A stretch of 64,000 nucleotides of DNA from Clostridia bacterium (GTDB taxonomy: Bacteria; Bacillota; Clostridia; JAAYHZ01): positions 333,117 to 397,116 of the forward strand of contig JBMNIH010000003.1 in the NCBI GenBank assembly GCA_050950825.1, in the 5' to 3' direction. This document shows, one piece after another, positions 5,537 to 57,944 of this stretch (the stretch's first letter is position 1; every line of letters starts with the position of its first letter). Made by a program: the position numbers and the translations under genes. Under the pieces are notes generated by a model. The model saw nothing but the letters and a program-made list of their open reading frames with translations, was not told where the DNA came from and did not search any database.

Positions 5537-5574
5537 AGATATAACTTATAAAAAAGCGTAAGGGATTTTTTAAT

Positions 5575-6516
5575 ATGAACGAAAACGAGGAACGCCGTCA
5601 GCTTTTGATCGATGTTGCACGTATGTATTATTTCGAAAATATGTCTCAGCAGCAAATAGCTGACATACTGCACATGTCACGGTCCAATGTTTCGCTGCTG
5701 TTAAGGAGCTGTTTGGAAAACTCGATTATCGAAATCAAAATTAATGATACGGTCTCCAGAGCACATGACTTGGCGGCTCTTATCAAGCAAAAATTCTCTT
5801 TAAAAACCGTATTGATTGCACAATCCTTTAAGAATCCCGAACGATGTCTGGAAAGCGTGTGCCGGCTTGCAGCGCATTATCTTAAGTCAATATTGTCTAA
5901 CGGAATGCTATTAGGATATACAAATGACATTGTGGCATACCATATTGCAGACAAATTGTCTTTTTTGGATTATGTGAAGATCAATACGATTCAGATGATG
6001 GGGGGATTAAGTAATATAATCAAGGATATCGATGGACAAGCACTGGCGCAGATCTTTTCAAAAAAGCTTAACGGTACCTCCTACGTTCTGCAAGCGCCTT
6101 TAAAGGTAAAATCAAGTACGTTAAAGGAGTTGCTGATGGCCGAACCCGTTATTCAAAGTACCTTTGAAATGTATTCGAAGATTGATGTCGCAATCATGCA
6201 AATCACCAAACCAAACCTTTTACCGCATATTCAACAATCGGATGAAATTTGCAGTAAAGCGGAGCTGCTGCAGTTATCCGAGCTTGGCGCCGTTTGTCAT
6301 TTTTGCGGCAGATATCTGGACAAAAACGGATCCTCCTGCAATGCCGGAATAAACGAGCGGATTATGGCGATTGATCCGGAAACAATAAAGAGCATTCCCA
6401 CCGTTATAGGTGTTTCTGCCAATATTAGCAATACCCAAGCGGTATTGAGCTGTGTGAAGGGCGGATATATCAACAGTCTGATCATTGACGAGGCGATGGC
6501 AAGGAGCTTATTGTAA
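5575..6516 (+). CDS. SorC/DeoR-family sugar-binding transcriptional regulator
   Basis: 313 aa; N-terminal HTH (MSQQQIADILHMSRSNVSLLL) plus sugar-binding domain; divergent from the kinase operon. Confidence 0.75.
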   Translation: MNENEERRQLLIDVARMYYFENMSQQQIADILHMSRSNVSLLLRSCLENSIIEIKINDTVSRAHDLAALIKQKFSLKTVLIAQSFKNPERCLESVCRLAAHYLKSILSNGMLLGYTNDIVAYHIADKLSFLDYVKINTIQMMGGLSNIIKDIDGQALAQIFSKKLNGTSYVLQAPLKVKSSTLKELLMAEPVIQSTFEMYSKIDVAIMQITKPNLLPHIQQSDEICSKAELLQLSELGAVCHFCGRYLDKNGSSCNAGINERIMAIDPETIKSIPTVIGVSANISNTQAVLSCVKGGYINSLIIDEAMARSLL

Positions 6517-6672
6517 GGGATCATATCCGGCCCCTACGGCTTCCCGACATTTCTTTAGATTGCATAAGATTCATAGGTTTCATATCAAAAAAACTTCGAT
6601 CACGAACAAAGGGACCGCTTGGATACAAGCAGTCCCTTTATTTCGTATGATTTTCTTAATCCGTTTTTAAAA

Positions 6673-9547: not shown

Positions 9548-10084
9548 TTAAGCTTGTGCCTCTTGACGCTTTTCTAAAATAGCGTTTAAAGCCACAACAA
9601 GTCCTCTTAAGTTACCGTTGAGAACGTTAACCAATCCGTACAGCGGTGCACTGAATCCGCCTACAACCTTCGCGATCAATTCTTCCTTCGAAGGAAGCGT
9701 AGCTAATCTTTCCACATGGCTGACATCAATTTTGCTGCCTTCCAATATGCCGGATTTGATCTTAATCTTATCTATTTCCTTTTGGTATTTGAACATGAGC
9801 TTCGAAGGAGCTACCGGATCCTCGCTAAATGCAATGGCGTTCGGACCTTTCAAGTCTTCTTCAAAACCTTTAAACCCCAGCTGCTCGAATGCATGAGCCA
9901 ATATGGCGTTTTTAACCACCTTGTAATGTACACCGGCTTCACGCAATTCTTTTCTCATCTTTGTATCCTTATCAACGGTGATACCTTGATACTCGGAAAT
10001 CACGACGCTTTTGGAGTTTTTCAGTAATTCTACCAGTTCACTGACTTCCTGCTTTTTTTGTTCTAATATTTTCTCACTTGCCAA
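9548..10084 (-). CDS. rplJ: 50S ribosomal protein L10
   Basis: L10 family; likely TTG start at 10084 (ASEKILEQKK...) 7 nt after GGAGG. Confidence 0.9.
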   Translation of the reverse strand: MASEKILEQKKQEVSELVELLKNSKSVVISEYQGITVDKDTKMRKELREAGVHYKVVKNAILAHAFEQLGFKGFEEDLKGPNAIAFSEDPVAPSKLMFKYQKEIDKIKIKSGILEGSKIDVSHVERLATLPSKEELIAKVVGGFSAPLYGLVNVLNGNLRGLVVALNAILEKRQEAQA

Positions 10085-10313
10085 ATATAACACCTCCTTC
10101 CGGGAGTATCGGATATAAAATAAACCTCGTACATATAGACATACGAGGCTTTAAGAATAATCAATGATTATAATCCATTCTATTCTTCATGTTTCATTAA
10201 AACATTACCTCGGTAGGATGGCTTTTTAAGCTCTTACGAGCTCCTACTGTCTATAGTAACGTGTGCCATTATACATCAGTTGTTTTCAAAAAGCAATCGA
10301 TTTTTTAAAATTT
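10085..10313 (-). promoter_or_regulatory. rplJ (L10) leader, probable autoregulatory leader region
   Basis: ~230-nt structured untranslated region between rplA and rplJ, the position where an L10 autoregulatory leader is expected; structure not modelled. Confidence 0.5.
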
Positions 10314-11009
10314 CTATTCAACCAGTGTGTTGGTATTTAACTTAACACCGGGGCTCATTGAAGTAGCCAATACGACACTTCTCAAATACTTACCTTTTGC
10401 TGCAGCCGGTTTTGCTTTAACAACGGCATCGATCAAGGTCTTTAAGTTTTCAATCAGCTTTTCCTTTTCGAAGGACTTCTTGCCGATGATGCAGTGGATA
10501 ATGTTGTTCTTGTCCAAACGATATTCCACTTTACCTGCTTTAACTTCTTCGACGGCTTTGCCGATATCCATAGTAACCGTACCGGCCTTCGGGTTGGGCA
10601 TCAAACCCTTCGGTCCTAAGATTCTTCCCAAACGACCGACAACCTTCATCATATCCGGCGTAGCAACCACTACGTCAAATTCGAACCAGTTTTCTTTTTG
10701 GATTTTTTCCGCCAAGTCGTCATCGCCTACATAATCCGCTCCGGCATTTTGAGCTTCCGTTGCTTTTTCGCCTTTGGCAAATACCAAAACTCTCGGTTGT
10801 TTACCTGTTCCATGGGGCAGAACAACGGCACCACGAACCTGCTGGTCGGCATGTCTCGAGTCGACGCCTAAACGTATATGCAATTCCACGCTTTCATCAA
10901 ACTTCGTAGCGGGCAAGCTTTTGATAATATCGAAAGCTTCGTTCATTTCATAAAGCTTTGTTTTGTCAAAACTATTTAACGCCTGAATATATCTTTTACT
11001 TCTCTTCAT
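10314..11009 (-). CDS. rplA: 50S ribosomal protein L1
   Basis: 231 aa L1 family. Confidence 0.95.
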
Positions 11010-11066
11010 ATAACTTCACTCCTTTGTGGTATTATTCGGGAAACCCCTCCCACTGTTGAAAACAAG

Positions 11067-11492
11067 TTAGTCTTCTACAACAACGCCCATGCTGCGAGCC
11101 GTTCCGGCTATCATAGACATTGCCGCTTCAATACTAGCTGCATTCAAATCCGGCATCTTCTTTTCTGCAATTTCACGCAGTTGCGCTTTCGTGAGAGTTG
11201 CAACTTTGTTTGATTTCGGTTCGCCTGAACCTTTTTCCAATTTGCACGCTTGTTTAATTAATACAGCCGCCGGCGGAGTTTTCGTAATAAAAGTAAACGA
11301 ACGATCCGCATATACCGTAATAACTACAGGTATAATGGTTCCCAAATCGCCACTTGTTCTTGCGTTAAACTCTTTGGTAAATTGCATGATGTTCACGCCA
11401 TATTGTCCAAGAGCTGGTCCAACCGGTGGAGCCGGAGTCGCTTTCCCTCCGGGAATCTGGAGCTTAATGTAACCTAAGACTTTTTTAGCCAT
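11067..11492 (-). CDS. rplK: 50S ribosomal protein L11
   Basis: L11 family ([30 protein letters not shown]); start at ATG 11492 with GGGAGGTG RBS. Confidence 0.95.
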
Positions 11493-11564
11493 GAGTCCAC
11501 CTCCCAAAAAAATTTTAATTACTTACTTTATATTAACAAATCAAAGGATTTGTCGATACCTACA

Positions 11565-12173
11565 TTACAGAATTTGAACTTGGTTGTAGTCAAGTTCCAC
11601 GGGAGTATCTCTTCCAAACATGGAAACCGATACTCTCACCTTCATTCGTTCCGGATTAATTTCCGTCACTACGCCGATAAAGTTTTCCAAAGGACCGGAA
11701 ATAACTCTGACATTATCTCCTACTTCAAAGTTCAGAACCGTCTCTACGACTTCAACGCCCATATTGACCATCTCTTCTTCGCTCAGAGGAACGGGCTTCG
11801 AGCCGGGACCTACAAACCCGGTTACACCTCTGGTATTTCGTACTACATACCAGGATTCATCCGTCATTACCATTTTGACAAGCACATACCCCGGATAGAT
11901 CTTTTTAAATGTAATCTTTGTTTTTCCATCCTTCACTTCCTGATGCTTTTCCATCGGAACAACGATATCGACAATGTAGTCCTGCATGTTTCTGTTTTCT
12001 ACTATCTTTTCCAGGTTCGCTTTAACTTTATTCTCATACCCTGAATACGTATGAATCACGTACCATTTGGCTTCGTCGGCTAAACTCGATTTCTCTTCAG
12101 CCGAAAATCCCGCCCGTTCGTCCTTTTCTTCCGGTACGTTAATATTTTCTTCAGGTATATCATCAAAAAACAT
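11565..12173 (-). CDS. nusG: Transcription termination/antitermination factor NusG
   Basis: NGN domain (WYVIHTYSGYENKV) and KOW domain. Confidence 0.9.
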   Translation of the reverse strand: MFFDDIPEENINVPEEKDERAGFSAEEKSSLADEAKWYVIHTYSGYENKVKANLEKIVENRNMQDYIVDIVVPMEKHQEVKDGKTKITFKKIYPGYVLVKMVMTDESWYVVRNTRGVTGFVGPGSKPVPLSEEEMVNMGVEVVETVLNFEVGDNVRVISGPLENFIGVVTEINPERMKVRVSVSMFGRDTPVELDYNQVQIL

Positions 12174-12227
12174 GGATTACGGGCCTCCTTGTGTTTATCA
12201 TCCGGGTATACACGACTTTAAATGCCA

Positions 12228-44466: not shown

Positions 44467-45777
44467 TTATTTGCCCTTTTGCATTTCGTCAACCGCTTCC
44501 AGTACCGCATCGGCCATATATACCAATTGGTCTTCGTTTAAGCCGTACAGCGGCAAGTGAGTAAAGCGTCTGTTGAATACTTCTTCGGTAACGGGGCAGG
44601 TTTCCGCAATGGCCGCTTGGTCGTAGCCCAATTCACGGACGATGTCAAAGTAGTACAAGGGTCCGAAGTGCGGAATATTCGTAACGCTCTTTTCGGACAG
44701 CTTCTGCTTCAACACTTGAACGTCTCCGCCGGCTTTGTCCGGATCGATTTGCAGCAGATAGAGGTGGAAAGAAGGTTTGATCTCATCATTACCCAAATCT
44801 TGCGGAATAATCGCCGGATTTTCGGCAAAGCGCTTGTTCAAGTATTCGGCGGCTTTTCTGCGTTCTTCCATAATCTTATCGTTACGAGCGATTTGAAGCT
44901 GCAGACCCAAAGCCTGAATTTCCGTGGTGGAGCAGTTGCCCGCTACGAAAGGACCGTATTTTCCTTTAATCGCTCTTACGTCATACAGCCAATTCTTAAT
45001 CTTTCTTGAAAAGTCCGCGCCTAAGAAACGAGCACGCTTCAATTCATCGCGGAATTCTTCGATATTGGTGGTCAGTATACCGCCTTCTCCGAAGGAGGTA
45101 ATATTTTTAACTTCGTGGAGGCTGAATGCGGTAAAGTCTCCGATGGTACCGACCTTCTTGCCCTTGTATTCGGCTCCGAATGCATGAGCGGCATCTTCGA
45201 GAACCGTAATGTCATGCTTTTTCGCCAATTCCAAAATAGGATCCATATCCACGGGATAACCGCCCAAATGAACCGGTACAATCATTTTCGTTCTCGGAGT
45301 GATTTTGCGAGCCACATCGGCAGGATCCATATTCAATGTTCTCGGATCCACATCGGCAAATACGACTTTCGCTCCTACTTCCAAAGGATAAGCCATGGTT
45401 GCGATAAAGGTAATGGCGGGAACAATCACTTCGTCTCCGGGTTTAAGATTTGCATACTTGAATGCAATCTCAAATCCTTCGGTACAGTTGGTCACAAACA
45501 AGCTGCCTTTTGATCCAAGATATTTGTCTACCATTTCTTCCGCTTTTTCTACCTGTGTTCCTAAAGACAATTTTCCCGGAGGAGAAGACACTTGGGTGAG
45601 TTTTTCCACTTCCTCGGCAATCTTGCCGAGGATTTTTTCATATTCTTCTCCCTCGCCTTGCGCAAGGAAGCGAATAACAGCCATCAAGTCCTGTGCATTG
45701 TAATTCTCACCTACTGCAGCCCAGGGTACACGAGTTGCTCCGGTATTGTATCGAAAATCCGACGCTTTTTTAACCAT
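44467..45777 (-). CDS. DegT/DnrJ/EryC1/StrS-family PLP-dependent aminotransferase
   Basis: Fold-type I sugar-aminotransferase-like motifs (FSLHEVKNITSFGEGG); ATG at 45777 with AAAGAGGTG RBS (track start is a GTG). Confidence 0.7.
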   Translation of the reverse strand: MVKKASDFRYNTGATRVPWAAVGENYNAQDLMAVIRFLAQGEGEEYEKILGKIAEEVEKLTQVSSPPGKLSLGTQVEKAEEMVDKYLGSKGSLFVTNCTEGFEIAFKYANLKPGDEVIVPAITFIATMAYPLEVGAKVVFADVDPRTLNMDPADVARKITPRTKMIVPVHLGGYPVDMDPILELAKKHDITVLEDAAHAFGAEYKGKKVGTIGDFTAFSLHEVKNITSFGEGGILTTNIEEFRDELKRARFLGADFSRKIKNWLYDVRAIKGKYGPFVAGNCSTTEIQALGLQLQIARNDKIMEERRKAAEYLNKRFAENPAIIPQDLGNDEIKPSFHLYLLQIDPDKAGGDVQVLKQKLSEKSVTNIPHFGPLYYFDIVRELGYDQAAIAETCPVTEEVFNRRFTHLPLYGLNEDQLVYMADAVLEAVDEMQKGK

Positions 45778-45845
45778 AATACGCACCTCTTTATATTTTT
45801 TTAAACCATTATTGATTTCGAAGTGAATAATTATTATAAATTATA

Positions 45846-46995
45846 TCAAGTTCGACATGAATAATCAAGTTTTATCCGTCGGTACGGACTTGGTCTGCCG
45901 GGTATCCTCCGTATTCCTCCACAAGGTAATTTGATACGTTTCCGCTCCGTTCCCGGCGGAACCTGATCTCCTGCCGATTGAACTAACATTGGGCTCGTTT
46001 TCCTAAGATCCGGCCATTCTCTTACATGCGCTATGAATTCCTTTTCCGGGGTTTGCGGCAGCCACTTTTCAGGAGATACGCCCCCGAAAAGAATAAGATT
46101 CTCTCCCGCTTGCATCCTGATTTGTAAAGGGGTTAAATCTCCGCAAGGAGCGGGAGTACATGCATCGGCCACATCCACGCCGGTTTTTGCCACAAGTCCT
46201 AATATTCCGTTCAATCGGCCGTCCAAATGAGAGGATACCGTTTTCCCTGCGGCATGAAGCCTTTCGGCAATATTTTTGTAATGCGAAAAGCTGTATTCCA
46301 TAAAGATATCCGGAGACTGAATATCCGAGGATAAATTGTCTCCGAAGAAAATGTGAGGTGCCGGAGATTTTGCATAGATATCCGTCAATTCCGGGTGCTT
46401 TTGGTTATAGATATCCACATACGCTTTAACGGCCTTAGGATCGTCGTAAAGAGCATATACGGTATTTTCTACCCCCATGTAATAGGATATGAGAGAGCCG
46501 AATCCCGTGTATCCCATGCTCGGAAAACCGAGGCCGACATCTTTGCCCGCTTCTTCAATCAAAGTCCAATTTTCATAACAAGGCTCGTATACTCGTCTTT
46601 ACACGGCATAGGTGAGAATTTTTAAATCCTCCAAGGACTCCACCATGCGTTTTTTTCACATCCCAAGAAAAGCTTATCGGATTCCATTTCCGTATCATTT
46701 GCAAGTTTCCGACGGGCGTGATGTATTCTTCGATCGCCAAGCCGTTACGGATGCCTTTTTCTCTTTTAACGCCGTCGATATAGGTTTCGCGGTGAAGCGA
46801 GCCTACTTCGATATACCACCCGGCTTTTACTTCCTTATGCAAAGCCAACATTCCTTGGGTTCGGTTGGAAATATTGAATAAATCCCACGGTTCCCCGGAT
46901 TGAGACCGATACCAATGTCCCAAATCGGCAAACCAAGGCACCCGATCCGGAGTCTCCCCCTTTAAAACCTTCATCAATCTTTCTCTTTCATTCAT
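45846..46995 (-). pseudogene. Uroporphyrinogen-decarboxylase (URO-D)-family protein, apparently disrupted by frameshifts
   Basis: N-terminal part 46573..46995 and C-terminal part 45846..46598 lie in different frames; a second apparent shift after ...DQVPPGT gives a more native-looking end (NVSNYLVEEYGGYPADQVRTDG) in the +1 frame. Confidence 0.6.
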
Positions 46996-47009
46996 AACAA
47001 AATTTCCTC

Positions 47010-48167
47010 TCACCGCAAAGCACGGCACTTTATTCTTGCATATTCAATCCGTGTATTGTTATGATTTTTTCCTGCATACCAATAAGCAAGAAGCTCCGAA
47101 TCGTTTAAACGAAGCAGCGAGGGATGTCCCACGGAAAACCGGTACATCTCCTTCCAAGCGTCTTGCATACTGACATTTTTACTGTCCTGCCCCGTTATTC
47201 GATAATCCAAGACGATTAACGACTCCTTGCACGGCTTCCCGTAACCGGGATAACACCGTACCGTGATCACGGGATTTAAGCTTCTGTCGATATCGATCGT
47301 AAAAAGACGGCCGTCAGGAAGTGAAGCGGGTATACCCGGCTGGCCGTAGATTCCGGTGTCGGTAAATTCGCTCCAAGTCCCCCCTCCGTCCAAGCTGATT
47401 TTGGAATGGATGTTTAAATACCGCTTCCTTTTCCCGTCCAGCGTCCGGAAATAATCGACGATGGATTTCCCGTCCGCCAATACATTCGGCCTTTGGTCCC
47501 AATAATACATATCCTGAACGTTAGTAACGATAACCGTATTTCCCCATGTTCTCCCTTGATTCTTCGAAAAGATCATGGCGGACCGATGCACCCATTTCGA
47601 CGGATCTCCAACGGCTTTGTTTACTTCAAAATGACATACAAGGGTTCCGTCTTTCAACCGAAAGGGAGGACCGGTCAACGGTACCGGCTCGTTGTCGGGC
47701 AAAACCTTCATCAAAAAGGGCTCGCACCAAGTTTCTCCGCCATCTTCCGAAAAACTGTAGTAAATCTTGGTATCCTTTAGGGTTTCCGTTTCCTCGTCAT
47801 AATAGGGCAAGGACAGGTTCGAGGCATCCGTCCAATTGAGGACCATCAGCACCCGATTTCCTCCTAAAGACAAAGGATATCCCGCACGGTATTGCCCGGG
47901 CACCTTGATTTCCTTCGGCAAAGGAATCGGTTCAAAAGGATCGGACCAGGTCTTTCCTTCGTCGTCGGACCGCATTAACATGCAATAAGTCGAATCATTA
48001 TCCTCCTTCGTTTTCGAAGCTTTGAAGGAAACCAACCATCTTCCGGAGGGTAGCTTTTCAATACAAGGGAAGGTAATGCTGTTAAATCTTTCGTCATGGA
48101 CGGGCTTCGGTATGACGCCTTTTTCGACGATTTCCATTTCCCCTTTCTGCATGCACCTTGTTTCCAT
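47010..48167 (-). CDS. Cytoplasmic BNR/Asp-box repeat beta-propeller protein (sialidase-like fold)
   Basis: Four Asp-box motifs (SDDEGKTW, SEDGGETW, SKNQGRTW, SLDGGGTW); no signal peptide; start set at METRC (ATG 48167, AAGGAG RBS). Confidence 0.7.
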   Translation of the reverse strand: METRCMQKGEMEIVEKGVIPKPVHDERFNSITFPCIEKLPSGRWLVSFKASKTKEDNDSTYCMLMRSDDEGKTWSDPFEPIPLPKEIKVPGQYRAGYPLSLGGNRVLMVLNWTDASNLSLPYYDEETETLKDTKIYYSFSEDGGETWCEPFLMKVLPDNEPVPLTGPPFRLKDGTLVCHFEVNKAVGDPSKWVHRSAMIFSKNQGRTWGNTVIVTNVQDMYYWDQRPNVLADGKSIVDYFRTLDGKRKRYLNIHSKISLDGGGTWSEFTDTGIYGQPGIPASLPDGRLFTIDIDRSLNPVITVRCYPGYGKPCKESLIVLDYRITGQDSKNVSMQDAWKEMYRFSVGHPSLLRLNDSELLAYWYAGKNHNNTRIEYARIKCRALR

Positions 48168-48178
48168 TAGCTTCTCCT

Positions 48179-49330
48179 TTATTTCATCAACCACTTTTCG
48201 TCAAAGACGGCAAAATCCAAATCGCTCGTGGCGGGATGCACCGCACGATAATGGCTGATACCTAATAAAATCCGTCCGTCTTCAAGCTGTATCATTCCGT
48301 GATTACTCAATTGGTTGGTACCGGTTTCATTGGCAATCATTTTCGGCTCGCTCCATGTACGTCCGCCGTCCTTCGATACGGTCGCCACAAGAGGATACCG
48401 GGGATGCTGCGTCGTTGAAGAAGCGTTGTTCCGGACCGCCAATAAATTTCCGCTTTGAAGTCTGATCATACGGGTTATGGATTCCGGTGCCGTTAAAGAA
48501 GAAGGCTCCGACCTGCTCCAGGTTTTACCTCCGTCTAAAGATACGGTTTGGTACACATAGCCGCCCTTGGTTCGAAACAAGCCGAGGATCCGATTCGGTT
48601 CGGTTTCGGCCAATTGTATTTCCATGACGCCTCTTAACGTATCCACGGTAATTTCTTCGCTTCTTGTCCAAGTTTGCCCGCCGTCGTCGGATAAAAGGCA
48701 TGCTCCCGTATAATGCTGCTTCGGATTATCCAAATCTCCTATACAATCCGGATCCAAGAACGTAAATGCCGCCACTATTCGACCGTTTTTTAGTTGGATC
48801 AGGCTGTCAATCCCGCCGTAAAACTTGGTGACCGGCAATTCCTTCCCTCCGGATACCCGGTCCCAAGGCAATTCTTCGCCCGCGTCAAAGGTATGACCTT
48901 TGTCTTCCGAACGGCGAATAAACAGGCGCGTGGTGCTTTGAAAATAGTTGCTGCCCTTAACTAAGCGGTGCAGCTTTTTGTCTACTTCGATGTGATGTCT
49001 TGTTCTTGTGTGCAGCATAATGGCCTTATCGGAATCGGAAAGGCGTAGCATATGGATAAAGCCCGGAACGCCGCCTAAATAATCGGCCATAAAAACTTGG
49101 GGGTCGGACCAAGTGACGCCGTAGTCTTCCGATACGGAATAAAGGACGACGCCGTTTCCGGAGCATTCGTCAAAATCATAGGCGTGCCAATACAAAAGTA
49201 CCTTCCCGTCTTCATACGAAAAAAAACTCGGACCTTGGTGATAGTCGCTGCCGATTCCCCCGCGAATAAATTGATAATAGGACAGTTCCCCGGGTTTATA
49301 GGGCATAGGCTTAATATCGGTAATTTTCAT
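48179..49330 (-). CDS. Cytoplasmic BNR/Asp-box repeat beta-propeller protein (sialidase-like fold), paralog
   Basis: Asp-boxes SEDYGVTW, SDDGGQTW, SLDGGKTW, SKDGGRTW; no signal peptide; GAGGAGG RBS. Confidence 0.7.
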   Translation of the reverse strand: MKITDIKPMPYKPGELSYYQFIRGGIGSDYHQGPSFFSYEDGKVLLYWHAYDFDECSGNGVVLYSVSEDYGVTWSDPQVFMADYLGGVPGFIHMLRLSDSDKAIMLHTRTRHHIEVDKKLHRLVKGSNYFQSTTRLFIRRSEDKGHTFDAGEELPWDRVSGGKELPVTKFYGGIDSLIQLKNGRIVAAFTFLDPDCIGDLDNPKQHYTGACLLSDDGGQTWTRSEEITVDTLRGVMEIQLAETEPNRILGLFRTKGGYVYQTVSLDGGKTWSRSEPSSLTAPESITRMIRLQSGNLLAVRNNASSTTQHPRYPLVATVSKDGGRTWSEPKMIANETGTNQLSNHGMIQLEDGRILLGISHYRAVHPATSDLDFAVFDEKWLMK

Positions 49331-49360: not shown

Positions 49361-51688
49361 CTACAGCAGCCTCTGAAAACCGGTATGGTGTACCGGTCCT
49401 TTCAACATGTTTTCAATCCGGTCTTCCGTGATACATTGGGATAGGATTTGAAAGACATCATCGACTGCATGCTCGTATAAGCTTAAGACATCTTCCGTGT
49501 GGGCTAGGGTAGTGCTGAATAGCGTCCCGGCTAAAAATCCTCTTTCCAGCATCAATTGGGTAAATAAGGTTTCCATCTCCCTTGTCTTCGGATGACGAAA
49601 AGAAAACTTGGCTAAACAAGGATAACCGCTGTCTAACGACAAAGGCAAACCGTGTTTCTCCCCGTATTTTTGCCATATAGCCATCACTTTTTCCCCGATT
49701 CGATTCACTCTGTTTGCCACATCCAATCGTTCCAACTTATTGATCGTGGCAAGAGCGGCGGCAGGACCGATGCCTTCCGTCCAATAAGTACTGGATATGA
49801 AAGAAAGATTCGCTCCTTCCATTGCTTCCTTCGTACCGATTACGGCCGCTATGGGATGACCGTTTCCAAGAGCTTTCGCAAAAATAGCCATATCCGGATT
49901 GACACCCAGTCCCAAATGAGAACCGCCGAAATTTCTTCGCCATCCGATGGTAATTTCGTCGAAAATCAATAAAATGCCTTTCTTTTTCGTTTCTTGGCGT
50001 ATGTACTCCAAATAACCTTCTTCCGGGTCATGATAGCGGCAAGGCTCCATAATGACGGCTGCAAGATCCTTGCCGTATGCGTCCATTACACGGTCAAAAG
50101 CCTTTTTGTCTCCATGCGTAAAGGTGACCGCCGTTCCTCTTAATTCCGTCGGCACCCCCAACGGGTCAAGTCCTTGCAAAAGATGTCCTTTTAAAGCATC
50201 CTCTTCTCTTAAATTCGCCGCCAAATACCAATCGTGCCATCCGTGGTAACCGGATATGGCGATTCCGGATCGATTCGTTGTTGCCCGGGCAATACGTACC
50301 GCGATGGCGCCGATTTCTCCCCCGCATCTTGCGAAACGAACTTTCTCGGCCCAAGGATGGATGGCGCATAATCGATCGGCCAATTCCACTTCATCGGGAG
50401 AGTTTAGGGTACACATGCTTCCCAATCGGATTCTTCGGATAACCGCATCGGAAACGTCCGGATCGTTATAGCCTAACAAACAGGTGCTGACACCGTTTAT
50501 GGACATGTCGTAATAATGTCGGCCGTCCAAGTCGATGATTTCACAGCCCCGTGCTTCTTTGTAATAGGCGGGCCATAAATCGGGAGCAAACATTTCGGGG
50601 CGTTTGCTTAAAAGCTGCACTCCTCCCGGGATGATTCTTTTTGCATGCTCATAAAATGTTTGTGTTTTGTTCTTTTTTTCATTTGGGGGATCAAGAAGAT
50701 TTATGGCGTTAGCGTAAAAAATGTTTTGAATGTCTTCGGAAGAAAGTCCGAAATAACCGGCGGCTTCTTTCAAGGCTCGCAAAGATTCCAAAGCCACAAT
50801 AGCAGGACTTTTACAGTTCTTCGCGTTTTCATAATCGCAGGTGTCGGGCTGCAGCCAGAAGAATCCGTCCCCTAACGTTACGCTTCGACCGATAATCTGT
50901 GATATGGGAAAATCGCTTCCCCATAAAAGTCGTGTCGGTCCGAATTCCTGCAAGATCGCCATAATCGGAGAAGCTTCGCAAATGCCGGACATATCAAACC
51001 AAACGTTTTGTATTCCTCTTAAAAAAGTAACTCCTTTACGGGTGTTAGGAGAATGAAATCCTCTTCCTGCATGGGCTAATATGAGTTTTACATGGGGATA
51101 ACGGCGGCATATATCTTGAATCATAGAAAGATTTTCATCATCCGCCAAGGCTTTGTCCTTAACGATATGAAGCGTTACAACAAAATTTTTACGATTCGCT
51201 TCTTCCCATACCCACTCCGGTACAAATGAATTTATAGATCCTTGGTCCTTCGGCTCATGATTCCCGTAGAAATAATAGGGTTTAAAGCCGCGAATACAAG
51301 GATGATCAAGATACTTTTCTATATACTCGGGCATTTCTTCGGTCATGGGAACCAACAGCAAGCCTCTGCTGTCCGGATTATCGTTTAACTCTTTGATAAG
51401 AAATTCATTGGCTTCCTCGATATCCGAAACCGGATAAGGCATGAAAAGCCCGCCTTGAAGATTTTTTCCGAATACGGATTTCATGCAGGATTGCCATATG
51501 GCGATACCGGTGTTTTCGGGACACCCGGCTAAAAAAATCGATTCGGGTACGGAATCAATGGAACGGCGGTACACATGGGCATGTACGTCAAAGATTTTTG
51601 CAGGAAAAAAGTCGATTAGATCTTCCAAAATCGCTTGGGGGTGAGGGTTACCGATACTTTCGGGATAAAAGCTGCATAGATTTTTCAT
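49361..51688 (-). CDS. Fusion protein: N-terminal amidohydrolase-2-type metal-dependent hydrolase domain plus C-terminal class III aminotransferase domain
   Basis: N-terminal FDVHAHVY ... LILAHAGRGFH ... WGSDFP resembles the amidohydrolase_2 metal site; the C-terminal ~430 aa resemble PLP class III (GSA-aminomutase-like) enzymes; start at MKNLC (ATG 51688, AGGAGA RBS). Confidence 0.65.
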   Translation of the reverse strand: MKNLCSFYPESIGNPHPQAILEDLIDFFPAKIFDVHAHVYRRSIDSVPESIFLAGCPENTGIAIWQSCMKSVFGKNLQGGLFMPYPVSDIEEANEFLIKELNDNPDSRGLLLVPMTEEMPEYIEKYLDHPCIRGFKPYYFYGNHEPKDQGSINSFVPEWVWEEANRKNFVVTLHIVKDKALADDENLSMIQDICRRYPHVKLILAHAGRGFHSPNTRKGVTFLRGIQNVWFDMSGICEASPIMAILQEFGPTRLLWGSDFPISQIIGRSVTLGDGFFWLQPDTCDYENAKNCKSPAIVALESLRALKEAAGYFGLSSEDIQNIFYANAINLLDPPNEKKNKTQTFYEHAKRIIPGGVQLLSKRPEMFAPDLWPAYYKEARGCEIIDLDGRHYYDMSINGVSTCLLGYNDPDVSDAVIRRIRLGSMCTLNSPDEVELADRLCAIHPWAEKVRFARCGGEIGAIAVRIARATTNRSGIAISGYHGWHDWYLAANLREEDALKGHLLQGLDPLGVPTELRGTAVTFTHGDKKAFDRVMDAYGKDLAAVIMEPCRYHDPEEGYLEYIRQETKKKGILLIFDEITIGWRRNFGGSHLGLGVNPDMAIFAKALGNGHPIAAVIGTKEAMEGANLSFISSTYWTEGIGPAAALATINKLERLDVANRVNRIGEKVMAIWQKYGEKHGLPLSLDSGYPCLAKFSFRHPKTREMETLFTQLMLERGFLAGTLFSTTLAHTEDVLSLYEHAVDDVFQILSQCITEDRIENMLKGPVHHTGFQRLL

Positions 51689-51822
51689 AAACCTATCTCC
51701 TAACCGTCGAAGTAAGTTCATAAGACAATATCGACATCTCTATCTTTCCAAGAAGTCCGTTTCGTTGTCAAGACGAAACGGACTTCTTTTACAACTTTAT
51801 TTTACATCTGTCTAAATTGTAA

Positions 51823-53661
51823 CTAATTTGCGTCTCTGTATTCTTTAAACGTTTTTATATCGCTGCCGTTCCAAATCTCAACCCATTCCTCCAATCCTGC
51901 AGCATAAAGCCGGTCGATATATTGCTCCCATTCGGTGTTGATATTGGCAATTTGTCCGCTCCATACCCTGGATGAGAATTCGTTATGAACGGTTGATATT
52001 TGATCAATGGTTTCTTCTCGCAGTTCTTTGAATTCTTCATATCGATCCGCAGGCATGGTAAAGGCGTTATAGAACTTCTCCGGTCGCAGCCACAGCTTCT
52101 CGTTGTAATACCCTCCGTGTTTTTCCCAGTAGTCGATGAATTGAACACAATGAGCATCGAAGTTGTAAACGACCTTGATATCGGTTATAAAATTGTTGTT
52201 GCCGAATTGGCCGAAGGTTTTCGTGCCCTTACCTGCATATTTTGCAGGTATCTTATCGGCTTCCGTAAAAATAACCGGGCTTTTAAAGGGCTCGCTGTAC
52301 CATTTGTAGTGAACGCCTTCGATTCCCCATTTATACCGCAGCCAATCTTCACCAAAGTACGCATACTCCAGTAATTGGAACAAACGAATCATTTTTTCAT
52401 CCGAGATATTGCCTACTGTATAACACCTCTCATCCCAATTAAAGGGAGTGTAAGGTAAGTATTTGCCGCTGCCCGGACAGGGGGTAATAACAAAGGTCGC
52501 ATCCGGATCGGTATTGTCAAGAATATTTGCCGGCGGCCATTGGTCCCCGTCTCCGTATCCCAAACCTAAGACTCTAGGAGCGCCTAATGTGTTCATAAAA
52601 CCGGTTTTTGCCGTATTCCATATACCTCGAAGCTCCAGCCAATAATCCATTTCGCCCGGCACAAACCGCATATATCCTTTGTCAATCATCTCGGTTAAAA
52701 AGACCAAGCTGTCACGATACGGAGCGTATGCTATGTAGGGAACATAATCTCCGGTAATTGGATCCTTGTAAAAATGGTTCATGTCTTTTGTAAAACCGAA
52801 CATAACGTAAGAAAGATAGCAGTCATACCACGAGTTGGCAAAACCGGATCCGAACGTATCGTCTACCCCGTTTCCGTCGGGATCGTCCTCCGTAAAGCCT
52901 CTTAAAATTTCTCGTACGTCATCTTCCGTAAACACGGTGGTAGAGTAATATACTCTTTCATTCCATGCCTCGGGTTTAATAACGCTGATCATAGGCTCCA
53001 GGTTCTCGAGTGTGTAGCCGAGAGTTTCCAGCCAATCCAAACGCCACATCGGTACGAAACCGTCTACATACGCCGAGCTTGTATTCATACTTATGCCGTA
53101 ATACTCGTCTTCCGTTCCTTCTACCAAGTTAAACTTAAAACCTAAAGGCTCGTCCACAAGCATTTTGTAATAACTTGGTAAATACTGTCGAATCATGTCC
53201 AAAGGTATGGTTCGTCCAAGTCCGTTTTCATACAAGTATTTTCCCGAGGTATAGTAGAACCCCCAGTCCGGAACGTCTCCTGCGGCCAGCATCATCTGTA
53301 CTTGCTCCATGTTGCTCGAATCAATCAGGATGTTCCACATTTTCAAGTCCACATTGAACTTTTCTTCGAGCTCCAACTCATCCCATCGGCCTTCCTCATA
53401 CAGATGGGATGAATAGGTACCTACCAGCCAGTTAATTACCATTTTTTCTGCAAAAGGATTGGCATCCGCCGTCGTTGTTTCCGCTTTTGTCGTTGTTGTC
53501 TGCGCCTTTGTTGTTGTCTGCTTTGCGGAAGCGGTTGTTACGACCGTATCTTCCGGCGATGTTTCAACAACCTCGGAGGTTCCGGAGCATGCCGCCATAC
53601 TGAAAATGATGGCAAGCAACAGTAAGAACGATAAAGACTTCTTAACCGAATTCATCTTCAT
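51823..53661 (-). CDS. Large extracellular solute-binding lipoprotein (paralog of 6673..8520)
   Basis: Lipobox IIFSMAAC, Thr-rich linker, shared blocks with the other binding protein (EEGRWDELELEEKFNVDL vs RDGRWDELELEEMFNVDL). Confidence 0.75.
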   Translation of the reverse strand: MKMNSVKKSLSFLLLLAIIFSMAACSGTSEVVETSPEDTVVTTASAKQTTTKAQTTTTKAETTTADANPFAEKMVINWLVGTYSSHLYEEGRWDELELEEKFNVDLKMWNILIDSSNMEQVQMMLAAGDVPDWGFYYTSGKYLYENGLGRTIPLDMIRQYLPSYYKMLVDEPLGFKFNLVEGTEDEYYGISMNTSSAYVDGFVPMWRLDWLETLGYTLENLEPMISVIKPEAWNERVYYSTTVFTEDDVREILRGFTEDDPDGNGVDDTFGSGFANSWYDCYLSYVMFGFTKDMNHFYKDPITGDYVPYIAYAPYRDSLVFLTEMIDKGYMRFVPGEMDYWLELRGIWNTAKTGFMNTLGAPRVLGLGYGDGDQWPPANILDNTDPDATFVITPCPGSGKYLPYTPFNWDERCYTVGNISDEKMIRLFQLLEYAYFGEDWLRYKWGIEGVHYKWYSEPFKSPVIFTEADKIPAKYAGKGTKTFGQFGNNNFITDIKVVYNFDAHCVQFIDYWEKHGGYYNEKLWLRPEKFYNAFTMPADRYEEFKELREETIDQISTVHNEFSSRVWSGQIANINTEWEQYIDRLYAAGLEEWVEIWNGSDIKTFKEYRDAN

Positions 53662-53876
53662 TTCCCCCTTTTTAAACAAACAACCTATTTTGAATATTTT
53701 GCTTTTCTTATACTGTAATTGATTAAAGCTCATTATGAAATGGTAGAATAAGACAGTTTATTCAGATTCATGTCCTATTTTAACTAAATTATTAATGTTA
53801 TATATTTTTACTATTTGCTATTTATGATAAAATAATATTGCCTGTTAGCGAAGAAAGAAGGGACGGATTCCAAATC

Positions 53877-54146
53877 ATGATTATCAATGGAAATCCAATC
53901 ATTTCGGATTCTATCTTAAAATTTTCGGATAGCGAAATTCATGTGGATATCGAGGGAATTCGTTTTTATATACTTTTAGACAGAAATTTTTTCAGCAGAA
54001 AACACATTTTATCCTTCCTTCGGCACAAGCACGGAGCTATTGAAATCTTCTTTGTTCGCGACGGTCAAGGGGAAATGAGCATCGGTAATAAAACATATGA
54101 GCTGTCGAAAAATAGAATCTATATCGTCAATAAGTGTTTACGCTGA
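53877..54146 (+). pseudogene. AraC-family regulator, N-terminal fragment truncated by an insertion element
   Basis: Frame ends 13 nt inside the insertion; joins in frame to 57296..57944 if the element and one duplication copy are removed. Confidence 0.7.
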
Positions 54147-54354
54147 GTTAAAATGTCCAAAAACTGATGGAATTGCCTGTCCAGATATTGCTGGTATATA
54201 ATGGCCATATACATTCTATAGAAAGAAAAAAGCGTCCTTGTTTCAATGTGATACTGTTACAGCAGTAGCACCAAGGACGTCCCCAAACTATGATCATTAT
54301 ATCAAAATATGAACTAGAAGAAAAGGCAGAAGAACAAGTTTTTATGTAAGAAGT

Positions 54355-54819
54355 TTGGAGCAGTTTCTATGTCCCTGCTGCAGGAGTAACCGTATGAAGG
54401 TTGTAGGGAGCAGGCCCAGGAAGTACCTGCAGGAGGATGCCTCGCAAGTGATATTGATAATACGCAGGCTGCGCTGCCTGGAATGTAACAAGATACATCA
54501 CGAATTGCCCGATATACTGGTTCCATACAAACGGTACAAAAGCGAATGCATAGAGACAGTTGTAGCAGAAGATAACAACACTCCGCTAGCAATAGCATGT
54601 GATGAATCTACGCTATACCGGTGGAAAAAGTGGTTTAACTCTTTAAGCAGGTATTTTGCAGGTTGCTTGCAGTCCATAGCAATACAGCTGGGAAGAGAAA
54701 CTGAAGAAGCTTCAGGACCAATATCCGTCCTCCATAGGATATGGTTTTATGTTATCGCCACTGCTGGCCGAGGGCCTGGATCCTGCAAAAGCGAAAGAGA
54801 TCAAAGCCCGTATATGTGA
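54355..54819 (+). CDS. Element-encoded zinc-ribbon protein of unknown function
   Basis: CPCC ... CLEC Cys4 motif at the N-terminus; overlaps the transposase start in another frame. Confidence 0.4.
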   Translation: MEQFLCPCCRSNRMKVVGSRPRKYLQEDASQVILIIRRLRCLECNKIHHELPDILVPYKRYKSECIETVVAEDNNTPLAIACDESTLYRWKKWFNSLSRYFAGCLQSIAIQLGRETEEASGPISVLHRIWFYVIATAGRGPGSCKSERDQSPYM

Positions 54820-56056
54820 ACAAACCGGTATATCAGAGCGTACTCTCCGAAGATATGTGGCACAATACCGGGAAGCCGGATTCGACGGTTTAAAGCCTAA
54901 AGGAAAGAGCCAAAGAAAAACAGAGGATGCCATACCATCCCATGTATTGGAGCAGGCTATTCTTCTGCGCAGGCAGGTTCCAAGCCGTAGCGTATCACAG
55001 TTGATAAACATCCTGGAGTGGGAAGGAATTGTAGAGCCGGGCCGGATAAAGCGCAGCACACTGCAGGAGCAATTGGCAAACCGGGGGTACAGTGCAAGAC
55101 AGATGAAAATGTACACATCAACGGGAGTAGCAGCGCGCAGGTTCCAACATCGGTATCGCAATAAGCTCTGGCATTCGGACATCAAGTATGGCCCTTATCT
55201 TCCTATCGGCAGGGATGGAGAAAAAAAGCAGGTGTTTTTGGTTCTCTTCGTGGATGATGCTACCAGATACGTTCTTCATGGAGAATTTTATCCCACCCTG
55301 GATAAAGTCATCGTAGAGGATTGCTTCCGGAAGTCCATTCTTAAGCATGGTGTGCCCGAAGCCGTATTTTTTGATAACGGCAGCCAATACAGGAACAAGT
55401 GGATGACACGGGCATGTGCAAAAATGGGCATTCGTCTGCTCTATGCCCGCCCCTACTCGCCGGAAGCAACCGGCAAAGTTGAGAGGCTGAACCGGGTAGT
55501 GGATTCCTTTCTTACAGAGGCCGCTTTGGAGAAACCACAGACCCTGGAAAGGTTGAACGAGCTGTTCCAGGTATGGCTTACCGAATGCTATCAGAACAGG
55601 CCCCATTCCGCCCTGGTGAATCACATGAGTCCGGAGGTTGCATACCGAAGTGATACGAAACCCCAAAGGTTTATTGACCCGGACGTCCTGGCTCAGGCGT
55701 TTTTGCATTTTGAGGAACGCAAGGTGGATAAAGCAGGCTGTATCAGCTTCAACGGCCAAAAGTATGAGGTTGGCCTTCCCTTTATTGGCTGCACCGTAGA
55801 TGTGATCTATGATCCGGCATACACCGACGAGCTTACCATTGAGTATGAAGGCCATAGCCCATGGAAGGCTAAGAAGCTGGTAATAGGTGAACGATCCGGT
55901 CGACGGCCTGATTTACCGGAATATCTTACCACCGAAAAAGCGGAGGCATCCCGCTTGCTAAGAGCAGCCAAAAAGAAGAACGAGCAGCGCATAGAACAGT
56001 ACATGCCTGCCGTCTCTTACAGAAACGTGGCCAAGGGTGGTGAGCAGAATGTTTGA
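54749..56056 (+). CDS. DDE (rve/integrase-core) transposase with N-terminal HTH (IstA/TniA-like)
   Basis: HTH (ISERTLRRYVAQYREAG); catalytic-triad candidates WHSD, FDNGSQY, KVERLN. Confidence 0.75.
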   Translation: MLSPLLAEGLDPAKAKEIKARICEQTGISERTLRRYVAQYREAGFDGLKPKGKSQRKTEDAIPSHVLEQAILLRRQVPSRSVSQLINILEWEGIVEPGRIKRSTLQEQLANRGYSARQMKMYTSTGVAARRFQHRYRNKLWHSDIKYGPYLPIGRDGEKKQVFLVLFVDDATRYVLHGEFYPTLDKVIVEDCFRKSILKHGVPEAVFFDNGSQYRNKWMTRACAKMGIRLLYARPYSPEATGKVERLNRVVDSFLTEAALEKPQTLERLNELFQVWLTECYQNRPHSALVNHMSPEVAYRSDTKPQRFIDPDVLAQAFLHFEERKVDKAGCISFNGQKYEVGLPFIGCTVDVIYDPAYTDELTIEYEGHSPWKAKKLVIGERSGRRPDLPEYLTTEKAEASRLLRAAKKKNEQRIEQYMPAVSYRNVAKGGEQNV

Positions 56057-56849
56057 AGCCTTTTATGGGTTTAAACGCACACCCTTCACACGTGATATTC
56101 CTACTGACCAGCTTTATCAGCCCATCATACCGGAAGAGACATTAGGGCGCCTGCAATATGCTGCAGATCGTCAGTTGTTCGCTGTTGTTACCGGGGACTG
56201 CGGTACCGGCAAAACCACAGCTATCCGCCGTTTCCGGGATATTCTGGACTCTTCACGATTTCATGTTATGTACCTTGCCGATTCCAAACTGACGCCCAGG
56301 CATTTCTACAAGGGTTTACTGGAGCAGCTGGGGTGTGAGGCAAAATTCTACCGTGGAGATGCCAAACGCCAGCTGCACCGGGAAATTGAGCTTATGAAGG
56401 GAATCCATAAACTGCAGCCTGTTGTCATAGTTGATGAAGCTCATCTTTTAGACCGAGAGATGCTGGAAGAGGTTCGTTTCCTGCTGAATTTCAAGATGGA
56501 CTCAGAAAGCCCAATGGCTTTAATTCTGGTGGGACAGTCAGAGTTGTGGGATAAATTCCAGCTCCAGGCATATGCCGCCATCAAGCAACGTATTGATATT
56601 CAGTGCAAACTGAATCATTATGATCGGGCTCAGGTGGGTGAATACGTACATAGACATTTAGAGTATGCAGCTTGCGACAGGGAAATTTTCTCTGAAGCGG
56701 CGTTGGATGAGATATTTAAGTATTCCAGCGGCTCTGCCAGGCTCATAAACAAGCTTTGCACCCATTGCCTGCTGTTCGGTGCTCAAAATGGCCGCAAAAT
56801 CATTGATGACCATATGGTAAAGCTCGTGATACAGGGGGAATTGGCGTGA
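56037..56849 (+). CDS. AAA+ transposition helper ATPase (IstB/TniB/ExeA-like)
   Basis: Walker A GDCGTGKTT, Walker B VIVDEAHLL, C-terminal GSARLINKLC block; overlaps the transposase end by 20 nt. Confidence 0.7.
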   Translation: MVSRMFEAFYGFKRTPFTRDIPTDQLYQPIIPEETLGRLQYAADRQLFAVVTGDCGTGKTTAIRRFRDILDSSRFHVMYLADSKLTPRHFYKGLLEQLGCEAKFYRGDAKRQLHREIELMKGIHKLQPVVIVDEAHLLDREMLEEVRFLLNFKMDSESPMALILVGQSELWDKFQLQAYAAIKQRIDIQCKLNHYDRAQVGEYVHRHLEYAACDREIFSEAALDEIFKYSSGSARLINKLCTHCLLFGAQNGRKIIDDHMVKLVIQGELA

Positions 56850-57172
56850 TACAATTCCACTGTTCTTATCAATGGGATGATGGTAGTAAAGACATATGGC
56901 ATGGTACTGTTAGCCAGGTTATTAATTTCGGCAGCCACTATGAGATTTTCATTTTAAGCCGGAGCAGCTTGCGGGTACTGGTTGGTCAATCAACCTCAGG
57001 GTTGTTTGCCTGTCTTCCTGATTGTAGCGCAGGGTGCCATTTGAGTACCCTTAATGATACTTTCTACAACAGTGAGAAGTTGATTTATGCTTTAGGAAAT
57101 GTTGTAGACGGTATGACAATAGCTTATGCTTTCAAAGCATTGGAACCATTTTTAAACTTCAATAACGACTAA
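56846..57172 (+). CDS. Element-encoded small hypothetical protein
   Basis: 108-aa ORF overlapping the ATPase stop; followed by perfect 10-bp hairpin AGCGGATAAC-CTTTTA-GTTATCCGCT (57179-57204). Confidence 0.35.
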   Translation: MIQFHCSYQWDDGSKDIWHGTVSQVINFGSHYEIFILSRSSLRVLVGQSTSGLFACLPDCSAGCHLSTLNDTFYNSEKLIYALGNVVDGMTIAYAFKALEPFLNFNND

Positions 57173-57278
57173 ATACATAGCGGATAACCTTTTAGTTATC
57201 CGCTCATGCCTTCGCTTTATTGGCAGTTATACCGTCAACTTTTGGTCAATTAACAACATCTATTTCGGGACAATTTGA

Positions 57279-57944
57279 GCTAGCATTAACAATAAAGGAT
57301 CGTATCATTGCCAATCAATCCATAATACGATCGAAGGATACTCCTTTCAGTTTCGTTATGAAGTACAAAAGCCTGCGGAATCCGTCTTCGCTCACAGCGA
57401 GCGCAATCTTTTTCTTGAAAGATTAAACCGACTCCGGGACTGCGTCCTTGAGGATGAATACGACTGCTGCGATACCATCGAAAAAATTCATCAAGAGATG
57501 AGAGAAATGAAATTCGGGTTTTATAACAAGATCCAGACGTATTTTGCACAAATGATCATTCATATATTGCGGATGTATCAACCGAAAAATCCGGAGAAAA
57601 TCGAGCTTGAGAAAAAGAGCCCGGAGCAGTCACGGACGGAAATCATCGACAACTTCTTCTATGACAATTTTGATAAGCGATGCGGTATAGATGATCCGGC
57701 ATCCCTAGTAGGCGTGAGCAGCAGACAATTAAACCGAATCCTTAAAGAAGAATACGGTTATAGCTTTAAGCAAATCATCATGGAAATGCGAGTGGAAGTG
57801 GCAAAAGATTATCTAATCCAAACGGACGTCACCGTATCCGACATCTCCTACATCGTCGGATATACCGAACCAAGCAACTTTTGCGCCGTATTCAGAAAAG
57901 CGACAGGCAAATCTCCCGGCGCCTATAGGAAACACCGTAGATAA
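57279..57944 (+). pseudogene. AraC-family regulator, C-terminal fragment (end of sensor domain plus HTH)
   Basis: Frame open from 57279; AraC-type HTH (SDISYIVGYTEPSNFCAVFRKATGKSPGAYR). Confidence 0.7.

Follow-up and report, generated by a model that had tools for sequence, protein, structure and literature searches.

A single minus-strand gene at positions 49361..51688 of a 64,000-nucleotide stretch of a Clostridia bacterium genome (assembly GCA_050950825.1, contig JBMNIH010000003.1, positions 333,117 to 397,116; hereafter the window) encodes, in one polypeptide of 775 amino acids (aa), an amidohydrolase domain followed by a class III aminotransferase domain. Here, I show that, as judged from its sequence, this fusion protein is a genuine, intact and cytoplasmic two-domain enzyme whose active sites are both preserved. 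Amino-sugar or sugar-acid catabolism is probably where it works, as a real bifunctional enzyme; the specific mechanism, a lactonase in the N-terminal domain (N-domain) joined to a transaminase in the C-terminal domain (C-domain), is proposed tentatively and at a little under an even chance.

Coordinates given here are positions in the window, and residue numbers refer to the 775-aa form unless stated otherwise. On the minus strand, 49361..51721 is one open reading frame (ORF) of 786 aa from its first ATG, with zero internal stops and no rival long ORF in the other frames of the ORF listing. A start at the first ATG (51721) would lengthen the protein by 11 aa; the second ATG, at 51688, which a preliminary description of this DNA had taken as the upper end of the gene, is the one with a Shine-Dalgarno sequence, GGAGA (51696..51700, minus strand), read 7 nt upstream. 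Translation from there meets a single stop, a TAG at 49361-49363. The 775-aa protein is 100% identical to P0001, which was predicted independently from a JGI metagenome contig; over the entire fusion gene, the DNA of this contig (L001) matches that of the window at 99.6% identity. Both Pfam domains lie well above their cut-offs, Amidohydro_2 (PF04909) with 66.7 bits versus 26.4 at aa 105-342 and Aminotran_3 (PF00202) with 132.1 bits versus 30.5 at aa 385-763 (786-aa form). Given the single uninterrupted ORF, the full match to P0001, the DNA identity of L001 and the two domains passing the Pfam scan that the preliminary description had recommended, its observation that one polypeptide joins an amidohydrolase-2-type to a class III aminotransferase domain is confirmed.

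Another check it had proposed, a search for the same fusion in further genomes, covered ~5.8 billion proteins and returned more than 120 full-length fusion homologues (757-804 aa, 53-72% identity) spanning at least six phyla, with sources among Clostridiales, Paenibacillus, Chloroflexota, Armatimonadota, Omnitrophota and Bacteroidales; both Pfam domains are present in all 120 homologues listed. The fusion architecture is, therefore, abundant in databases and the sequence itself is not new. In an alignment of 27 sequences each domain is highly conserved and the frame is continuous throughout, while the inter-domain linker (aa 336-348, NEKKNKTQTFYEH region, 50645..50683, minus strand) varies in length and sequence, with insertions of up to ~45 aa in homologues. 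The slight difference in GC content between the two halves of the gene (0.434 vs 0.483) is what two genes merged by a sequencing frameshift or a chimeric assembly might leave behind; yet the two values differ little, more than 120 independent proteins share the architecture, L001, an independent contig, matches at 99.6% identity over the junction, and homologue linkers vary in length with the frame never broken. An assembly artefact was rejected on account of the shared architecture and of L001, its probability being negligible, and the claim of no stop or frameshift between the domains holds on the same evidence.

The N-domain (aa 1-335, 50684..51688, minus strand) is an Amidohydro_2 TIM-barrel domain, recognised by Pfam and by its invariant residues. 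These are H36 (51581-51583), H38 (51575-51577), K136 (51281-51283), H174 (51167-51169), H206 (51071-51073), D232 (50993-50995) and D259 (50912-50914), all read from the alignment on the minus strand; the H36-x-H38 pair and the other five are unchanged across 45 diverse members down to 22% identity and map to barrel strand ends in the predicted model. Members of the amidohydrolase superfamily are recognised by a beta-1 HxH, a beta-5 His, a beta-6 His and a beta-8 Asp at the C-terminal ends of the strands, with a beta-4 Lys in binuclear subtypes; the N-domain carries this set and, going by alignment and model, would be a catalytically competent member, so that the amidohydrolase_2-like metal-site pattern of the preliminary description is real. 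The full-length AlphaFold model (pLDDT 76.5, pTM 0.72) is of lower confidence at about aa 333-380, the least confident parts being aa 357-380 and the C-terminus.

A search of the PDB with the N-domain sequence alone gave only marginal matches, and a profile search and a fold search were used as well. By these, the nearest solved relatives appear to be the sugar and pyrone lactonases of COG3618, such as the L-fucono-1,5-lactonase BmulJ_04915 (4dlf/4do7) and the 2-pyrone-4,6-dicarboxylate lactonase LigI (4d8l), at a profile E-value of only 6e-3 and only 13-16% identity; the N-domain differs from them in its invariant beta-4 Lys and beta-7 Asp and in being fused to a pyridoxal phosphate (PLP) domain. 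Membership of the NagA-type (Amidohydro_1) carbohydrate N-deacetylases, assessed by a Pfam Amidohydro_1 match or a close fold relationship, was not found for the N-domain. An alternative is that it would be a non-oxidative decarboxylase of the ACMSD/IDCase/LigW type, acting before or after transamination. Small lactonase-type proteins, however, score better than these decarboxylases in both TM-score and Z against the N-domain, and the known decarboxylases of the family take aromatic or vinylogous carboxylates, whereas the genomic context here is carbohydrate-like; a decarboxylase is accordingly very unlikely. The preliminary description had suggested coupled hydrolysis or decarboxylation and transamination of one substrate. 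This interpretation is supported in part: I infer hydrolysis and transamination, which may be retained, whereas decarboxylation is disfavoured by the context and the fold scores.

The C-domain (aa 349-775, 49364..50644, minus strand) is a class III (fold-type I) PLP aminotransferase domain, as indicated by Pfam, NCBIfam, PDB alignments and invariance. The PLP lysine K605 (49874-49876, minus strand) and the pyridine-nitrogen aspartate D577 (49958-49960, minus strand) are both invariant and align with the corresponding Lys and Asp of the glutamate-1-semialdehyde aminomutase (GSAM) 5i92. By sequence, the best PDB matches are the aminoglycoside C-6' aminotransferases 7lld (E 5.7e-38) and 7lm0 (8.6e-37), in alignments that span ~300 of 430 C-domain residues with a deletion, followed by the GSAM 5i92. 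With these GenB-type class III enzymes the C-domain shares GYHGWH(D/E)W, (S/G)TY..E, the PLP Lys and DE..G.R; in the fusion protein the first two read GYHGWHDWYLA and, after the PLP lysine, STYWTE, and GSAM has CYHGHSDSLL at the former. C-6' aminotransferases act on carbonyl or amine groups of sugars. The fusion differs from them in its catabolic rather than antibiotic-biosynthetic context and in two additional invariant stretches specific to its family, IPGGxQLLSKRPE at the N-terminal side (with R363) and a C-terminal tail GFxRL (with R773); the conserved R363 and R773 could bind a substrate carboxylate. The best explanation of these motifs is that the C-domain would be a class III PLP aminotransferase of the GSAM/GenB subgroup resembling the sugar C-6' aminotransferases.

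As to the 'GSA-aminomutase-type PLP enzyme' of the preliminary description, the label stands at the level of the subgroup only. The best NCBIfam models are indeed GSAM-like (HemL/PRK06209), of the same class III subgroup, but all named models score far below their cut-offs: PRK06209 209.1 vs 486, GntE (NF041362) 189.1 vs 525, TIGR00713 hemL 168.4 vs 527.3 and PRK00062 179.2 vs 398. Because of these scores the protein is not HemL; a HemL/GSAM identity was rejected, every equivalog score being far under its cut-off, and membership of GntE was likewise not found. The different motif where GSAM has CYHGHSDSLL and the lack of a tetrapyrrole context set the C-domain further apart from HemL. Fusion homologues carry only the names 'class III aminotransferase' or 'glutamate-1-semialdehyde 2,1-aminomutase'; the source databases mis-name the protein.

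The same models bear on the possibility that the hydrolase is coupled to a PLP reaction other than transamination, namely that of an aminomutase, a racemase or epimerase, or an ammonia-lyase acting on an amino-aldonate, for example by beta-elimination to a 2-keto-3-deoxy acid, as in glucosaminate ammonia-lyase. The best-scoring models are those of GSA aminomutases, class III-fold relatives among the matches include racemases, the PbfA ammonia-lyase and phospho-lyases, RidA (an enamine/imine deaminase) is encoded at loci L006 and L025, and the core loci often have no sugar-acid dehydratase yet do have an aldolase of the 2-keto-3-deoxy type. All of those models are, however, far below cut-off, RidA occurs in just these two loci, E-values and shared motifs place true sugar aminotransferases nearest among solved proteins, and paralogues of the C-domain (see below) have AKR or GFO oxidoreductases as partners, a pairing to be expected of enzymes that interconvert carbonyls and amines. 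Mutase or lyase chemistry is on this evidence decidedly unlikely, and a transaminase is the reading adopted for the C-domain.

The two modules occur fused, split into adjacent genes and alone, as follows from a locus survey and from a profile search with the N-domain. The survey took one genome per species and kept 80 loci, comprising 25 with the fusion, 2 with split genes and 53 with a stand-alone aminotransferase only (47-63% identity to the C-domain). At L015 (Anaerolineales) and L017 (Planctomycetota) the halves are separate adjacent genes in the same order, with gaps of 51 and 15 nt, respectively, and L039 and L042 each encode the N-domain in a gene of its own, at most 3 kb from the stand-alone aminotransferase. 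Of the 315 clusters (50% identity) that the exhaustive N-domain profile search returned at E <= 1e-30, most are stand-alone proteins of ~325-350 aa. In a neighbour-joining (NJ) tree of C-domains, a rough, distance-based and midpoint-rooted tree with no support values that was used only for the split between biosynthetic and catabolic contexts, the fused forms are interleaved with stand-alone forms of catabolic context, which implies repeated fusion or fission, and the biosynthetic paralogues form a separate clade. Paenibacillus contaminans (L018) has both forms within 5 kb, a stand-alone aminotransferase at 5526-6815 (63% identical to the C-domain of the window) and a fused copy at 10001-12214 (54%). 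A candidate fusion of the aminotransferase to an M81/MlrC peptidase in L010 was rejected; Pfam shows that the 912-aa ORF is an artefact of ORF calling, MlrC being merely the adjacent gene.

Gene neighbourhoods were compared by clustering the ORFs of all loci and annotating representatives, the fusion set being 30 loci: the window, L001 and L002, together with the reference loci, of which 25 are fused and 2 split. HpcH/HpaI aldolases and SDR proteins occur in 9 of these loci each, BNR_2 proteins in 8 (at most 4 copies per locus), AKR and PhyH proteins in 7 each, an unannotated secreted protein in 6, GFO-like and SSF proteins in 5 each and DHDPS-family proteins in 4. Other neighbours are MFS, RidA, an FAD amine oxidase, a 3-hydroxyacid dehydrogenase, an enolase-type dehydratase, a ceramidase-like amidase and a sulfatase with an SGSH_C domain, and the transporter classes that recur are SSF, MFS and ABC. 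The typical order, seen in L021, L025, L030 and L006, is a run of BNR_2 genes, DHDPS, PhyH, one further gene, the fusion, MFS or SSF, HpcH, AKR, GFO-like and SDR; in Paenibacillus agricola (L002) it is Amidohydro_1, the fusion, PhyH and AKR, then, further along, SDR, GFO-like, HpcH, SDR and SDR. Locus L085 adds URO-D, MFS, DHDPS, an SBP_bac_1 ABC system, GFO_IDH_MocA and DUF386/YhcH. Dyadobacter loci (L025) have four BNR_2 genes adjoining the fusion. The closest stand-alone aminotransferases (54-63% identity), from Lentisphaerota, Eubacteriales/Faecousia and Planctomycetota, are catabolic in context, since AraC, BNR_2, URO-D, DHDPS or GFO-like/HpcH/AKR genes adjoin them. The N-domain alone is found in this module too: in L086 the order is PhyH-Amidohydro_2-MTTB-BNR_2-URO-D opposite GntR-SSF-GFO-like-HpcH-SDR, and in L088 SDR-Amidohydro_2-DHDPS lies beside an ABC transporter.

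In the L-fucose and L-rhamnose pathways, a sugar dehydrogenase is followed by an Amidohydro_2 lactonase and then by a 2-keto-acid aldolase. The recurrent partners of the fusion are those of such an oxidative, non-phosphorylative sugar route, except that the sugar-acid dehydratase customary there is for the most part not encoded, whereas a PLP enzyme is; hence the proposal of lactone opening joined to amine removal. From these partners I infer a module that would handle an imported amino-sugar or sugar-acid glycoside. The sialidase-fold BNR_2 proteins would release a unit from the glycoside, the GFO, SDR and AKR dehydrogenases would oxidise it, and the N-domain would open the resulting lactone to an (amino)aldonic acid. 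The C-domain would then take the amino group off the amino-aldonate, or off a related intermediate, by transamination, and the keto-acid produced would be cleaved by aldolases of the HpcH or DHDPS type.

The same hydrolysis and transamination of one substrate could also be performed by an N-deacylase joined to a transaminase, the N-acyl group being removed from an acylamino sugar or nonulosonic acid and the freed, possibly unstable amine turned into a carbonyl; the ectoine-degradation pair DoeB/DoeD offers an analogy. Most amino sugars of glycans are N-acylated, and deacylation must precede any transaminase; the invariant HxH/K/H/H/D set fits the ligand pattern of amide-hydrolysing binuclear amidohydrolases; a fusion would suit the channelling of an unstable free amine; and a stand-alone aminotransferase gene at times has a different putative amidase as the very next gene (ceramidase-like, L028 and L035), possibly a non-orthologous replacement. 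Lactonase is favoured over N-deacylase because separate candidate deacylases occur in several fusion loci and because the N-domain is dispensable in the loci of the closest stand-alone aminotransferases (54-63%); lactones can open spontaneously, amides do not. The N-deacylase is thus regarded as doubtful, though with a real chance of being right. Against the preference for lactonase, the margin of the fold scores is small and the invariant beta-4 Lys suits amide hydrolases equally well; the locus in the window is also without dehydrogenase or aldolase partners.

More distant stand-alone aminotransferases (47-52% identity to the C-domain) lie in pseudaminic-acid clusters of the order PseB-DegT-(AKR/GFO)-CTP_transf_3-AT3-PseG-PseI, which are genuinely pseudaminic (PseI 494.6 vs cut-off 340, PseG 233.5 vs cut-off 153.6). 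A role of the fusion in biosynthesis, where a nonulosonic acid or another surface sugar would be modified during its synthesis, might be argued from these paralogues, some of which are fused to a cytidylyltransferase, and from the PseC-like DegT gene near the fusion in the window. The paralogues differ, however, in having no amidohydrolase domain, in their biosynthetic context (PseB, PseC, PseG, PseH-like, PseI) and in forming a separate clade of the NJ tree. Moreover, the window is without NeuB/PseI, cytidylyltransferase and 4,6-dehydratase, and fusion loci carry transporters, an AraC or two-component sugar-type regulator, glycosidase-fold proteins and aldolases. A biosynthetic role is, all in all, highly improbable.

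A conserved accessory trio of an AKR or GFO_IDH_MocA, a CTP_transf_3 and a class III aminotransferase stands between PseC and PseG/PseI in ~30 loci among L041-L081 (for example L047, L049, L054, L055, L060 and L064), carried by Candidate Phyla Radiation (CPR) bacteria, Campylobacterota, Bacteroidota, cyanobacteria and one methanogen. Within pseudaminic clusters, CTP_transf_3 and Aminotran_3 are also found fused (675-710 aa) in Synechococcus, Desulfocapsa and an alphaproteobacterium (L070:9173-11302, L079:1165-3189, L081:9221-11290). The cytidylyltransferase beside or fused to the paralogues was considered as PseF and rejected, since it is not the PseF equivalog and is weakly KdsB-like, and a link to nonulosonic acids by this route was dropped.

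In the window, the fusion belongs to a minus-strand operon that reads, in order, solute-binding protein (SBP), hairpin, fusion, two BNR_2 genes, URO-D-like, DegT-family, small membrane protein and HEAT-like protein. The first gene (51823..53733, minus strand) encodes a large lipoprotein-type extracellular SBP of 636 aa with a lipobox (...MAACSG) and a weak DUF3502 match; the same gene precedes the fusion in L001 and L083 as well. It is an orphan SBP, in that neither permease nor ATPase genes of an ABC system adjoin it in the window or in L001 and L083. Between it and the fusion lies a perfect 16-bp hairpin (51750..51788, minus strand; -30.5 kcal/mol, z = -5.5) with no T-tract after it, which is not scored as an intrinsic terminator and may instead be an mRNA-stabilising or stoichiometry-setting element.

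Downstream of the fusion follows a sialidase-fold beta-propeller of 383 aa with no signal peptide (48179..49330, minus strand; Pfam BNR_2, 114 bits), a position conserved in L001 and L083. Its PDB matches are weak (E 1e-8 to 1e-5) and comprise GH33-type sialidases and uncharacterised BNR/Asp-box proteins; the top one, ahead of true sialidases, is the uncharacterised Dyadobacter fermentans protein 5hx0 (Dfer_1899). The second BNR_2 protein (47010..48194, minus strand; 394 aa, 52.5 bits) has weak PDB matches that are nearly all sialidases, and it belongs to cluster 'BNR2a', present in 8 of the 30 fusion-set loci. Both propellers are cytoplasmic and above the Pfam cut-off. The URO-D-like gene, identified by Pfam (45846..47028, minus strand), is frameshifted near 46651 into two ORFs (46573-47028 and 45846-46562); in tblastn with an intact homologue, aa 1-116 align in frame -3 and aa 115-357 in frame -1, and the gene is intact (385 aa) in L083. 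The frameshift marks either a pseudogene or a sequencing error. URO-D-like proteins of these loci weakly resemble MtaA-type methyltransferases. The DegT/DnrJ/EryC1-family sugar aminotransferase (44467..45786, minus strand; 439 aa, 274.5 bits) is closest to 4-amino-4,6-dideoxyhexose transaminases, its best NCBIfam model being PseC at 204 versus a cut-off of 423.5.

Divergent from the operon, an AraC-family regulator gene is split by a transposon of 3.16 kb (54134..57289, plus strand), identified by Pfam, with DUF6431, an rve integrase with a helix-turn-helix (HTH) domain and an AAA_22/TniB-like ATPase; the remnants are an N-terminal cupin/AraC_binding part (53838..54146, plus strand) and a C-terminal HTH_18/HTH_AraC part (57498..57944, plus strand). 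L001 lacks the transposon: it is 98.8-99.6% identical on either flank and has an intact AraC of 301 aa. With the transposon in AraC and the frameshifted URO-D gene, the fusion operon of the window looks partly decayed. The closest relative on a long contig, L083 (66% identity), keeps the arrangement ceramidase-like / AraC / SBP-fusion-BNR_2-BNR_2-URO-D. None of HpcH, AKR, GFO, DHDPS, PhyH, SSF, NeuB/PseI, CTP-transferase or 4,6-dehydratase was found within the 64-kb window, and a search for a pseudaminic-acid biosynthesis cluster in it yielded only the PseC-like DegT gene, below cut-off.

Other genes of the surveyed loci point to variation in the substrate. A non-Pyl gene of the MTTB family (trimethylamine methyltransferase-like) adjoins the stand-alone amidohydrolase in L086 (9117-10550), in the usual position of the aminotransferase, and another lies near the fusion in L084 (7428-8843); together with the URO-D/MtaA-like genes, these hint at a possible N-demethylation in some versions of the module. 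In L012, L013 and L033 (Planctomycetota, Verrucomicrobiota), a sulfatase with an SGSH_C (N-sulfoglucosamine sulfohydrolase-type) C-terminal domain lies just upstream of the fusion, which suggests that the substrates in these loci are amino sugars carrying N- or O-sulfate.

The fusion loci share with sialic-acid (nan) loci sialidase-fold proteins, SSF, MFS or ABC uptake and a DHDPS-family lyase, and L085 also GFO_IDH_MocA and DUF386/YhcH; the nan genes to compare with these are NanA, NanY and NanQ. They differ in that the DHDPS is not the NanA equivalog (a NanA identity was rejected at 37 bits vs a cut-off of 382), that no NanK/NanE/NagA/NagB set was seen, and that BNR_2 is only remotely GH33-like. 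A bolder reading takes the module of BNR_2, transporter, PhyH, fusion, GFO-SDR-AKR and HpcH-DHDPS as a so far undescribed catabolism of bacterial di-amino deoxy sugars or of pseudaminic/legionaminic-type nonulosonic acids. On this view, the BNR_2 proteins would fill the place of the glycosidases still missing for these sugars, the fused enzyme would handle a 6-deoxy-amino-hexose or amino-aldonate fragment barred from the phosphorylative Nan/Nag route, and the paralogues would perform the reverse amination in biosynthesis. This is suggested by the sialidase-fold proteins, the DHDPS lyases, the PseC-like DegT and the paralogues in pseudaminic clusters; neither the test of the DHDPS nor that of the cytidylyltransferase bore it out, and it is considered unlikely. 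To my knowledge, there is no described pathway by which pseudaminic or legionaminic acids are broken down.

To sum up, the gene encodes a fusion of two known enzyme superfamilies inside a seemingly undescribed catabolic module that fits no described pathway; no characterised member and no description of the fusion were found in the literature searched on the fusion, the Pfam pair, nonulosonic-acid catabolism and pseudaminidases. If the proposed role is true, the module would be an unrecognised route by which polysaccharide degraders of soil, aquatic and gut habitats consume amino sugars or sialic-acid-like sugars, carriers of the fusion family being Paenibacillus, Bacteroidota, Planctomycetota, Verrucomicrobiota, Lentisphaerota and Clostridia. 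The enzyme would also be a natural hydrolase-transaminase fusion, of use in cascade biocatalysis on amino sugars. Its recognition corrects a widespread mis-annotation as 'glutamate-1-semialdehyde 2,1-aminomutase'. Along the same line, earlier work lists, without characterising them, 'GSAM' genes of Pse-type clusters, as in Legionella (PMC3694923), and the family offers a handle on these long-noted 'GSA-aminomutase-like' genes in the pseudaminic-acid clusters of pathogens.

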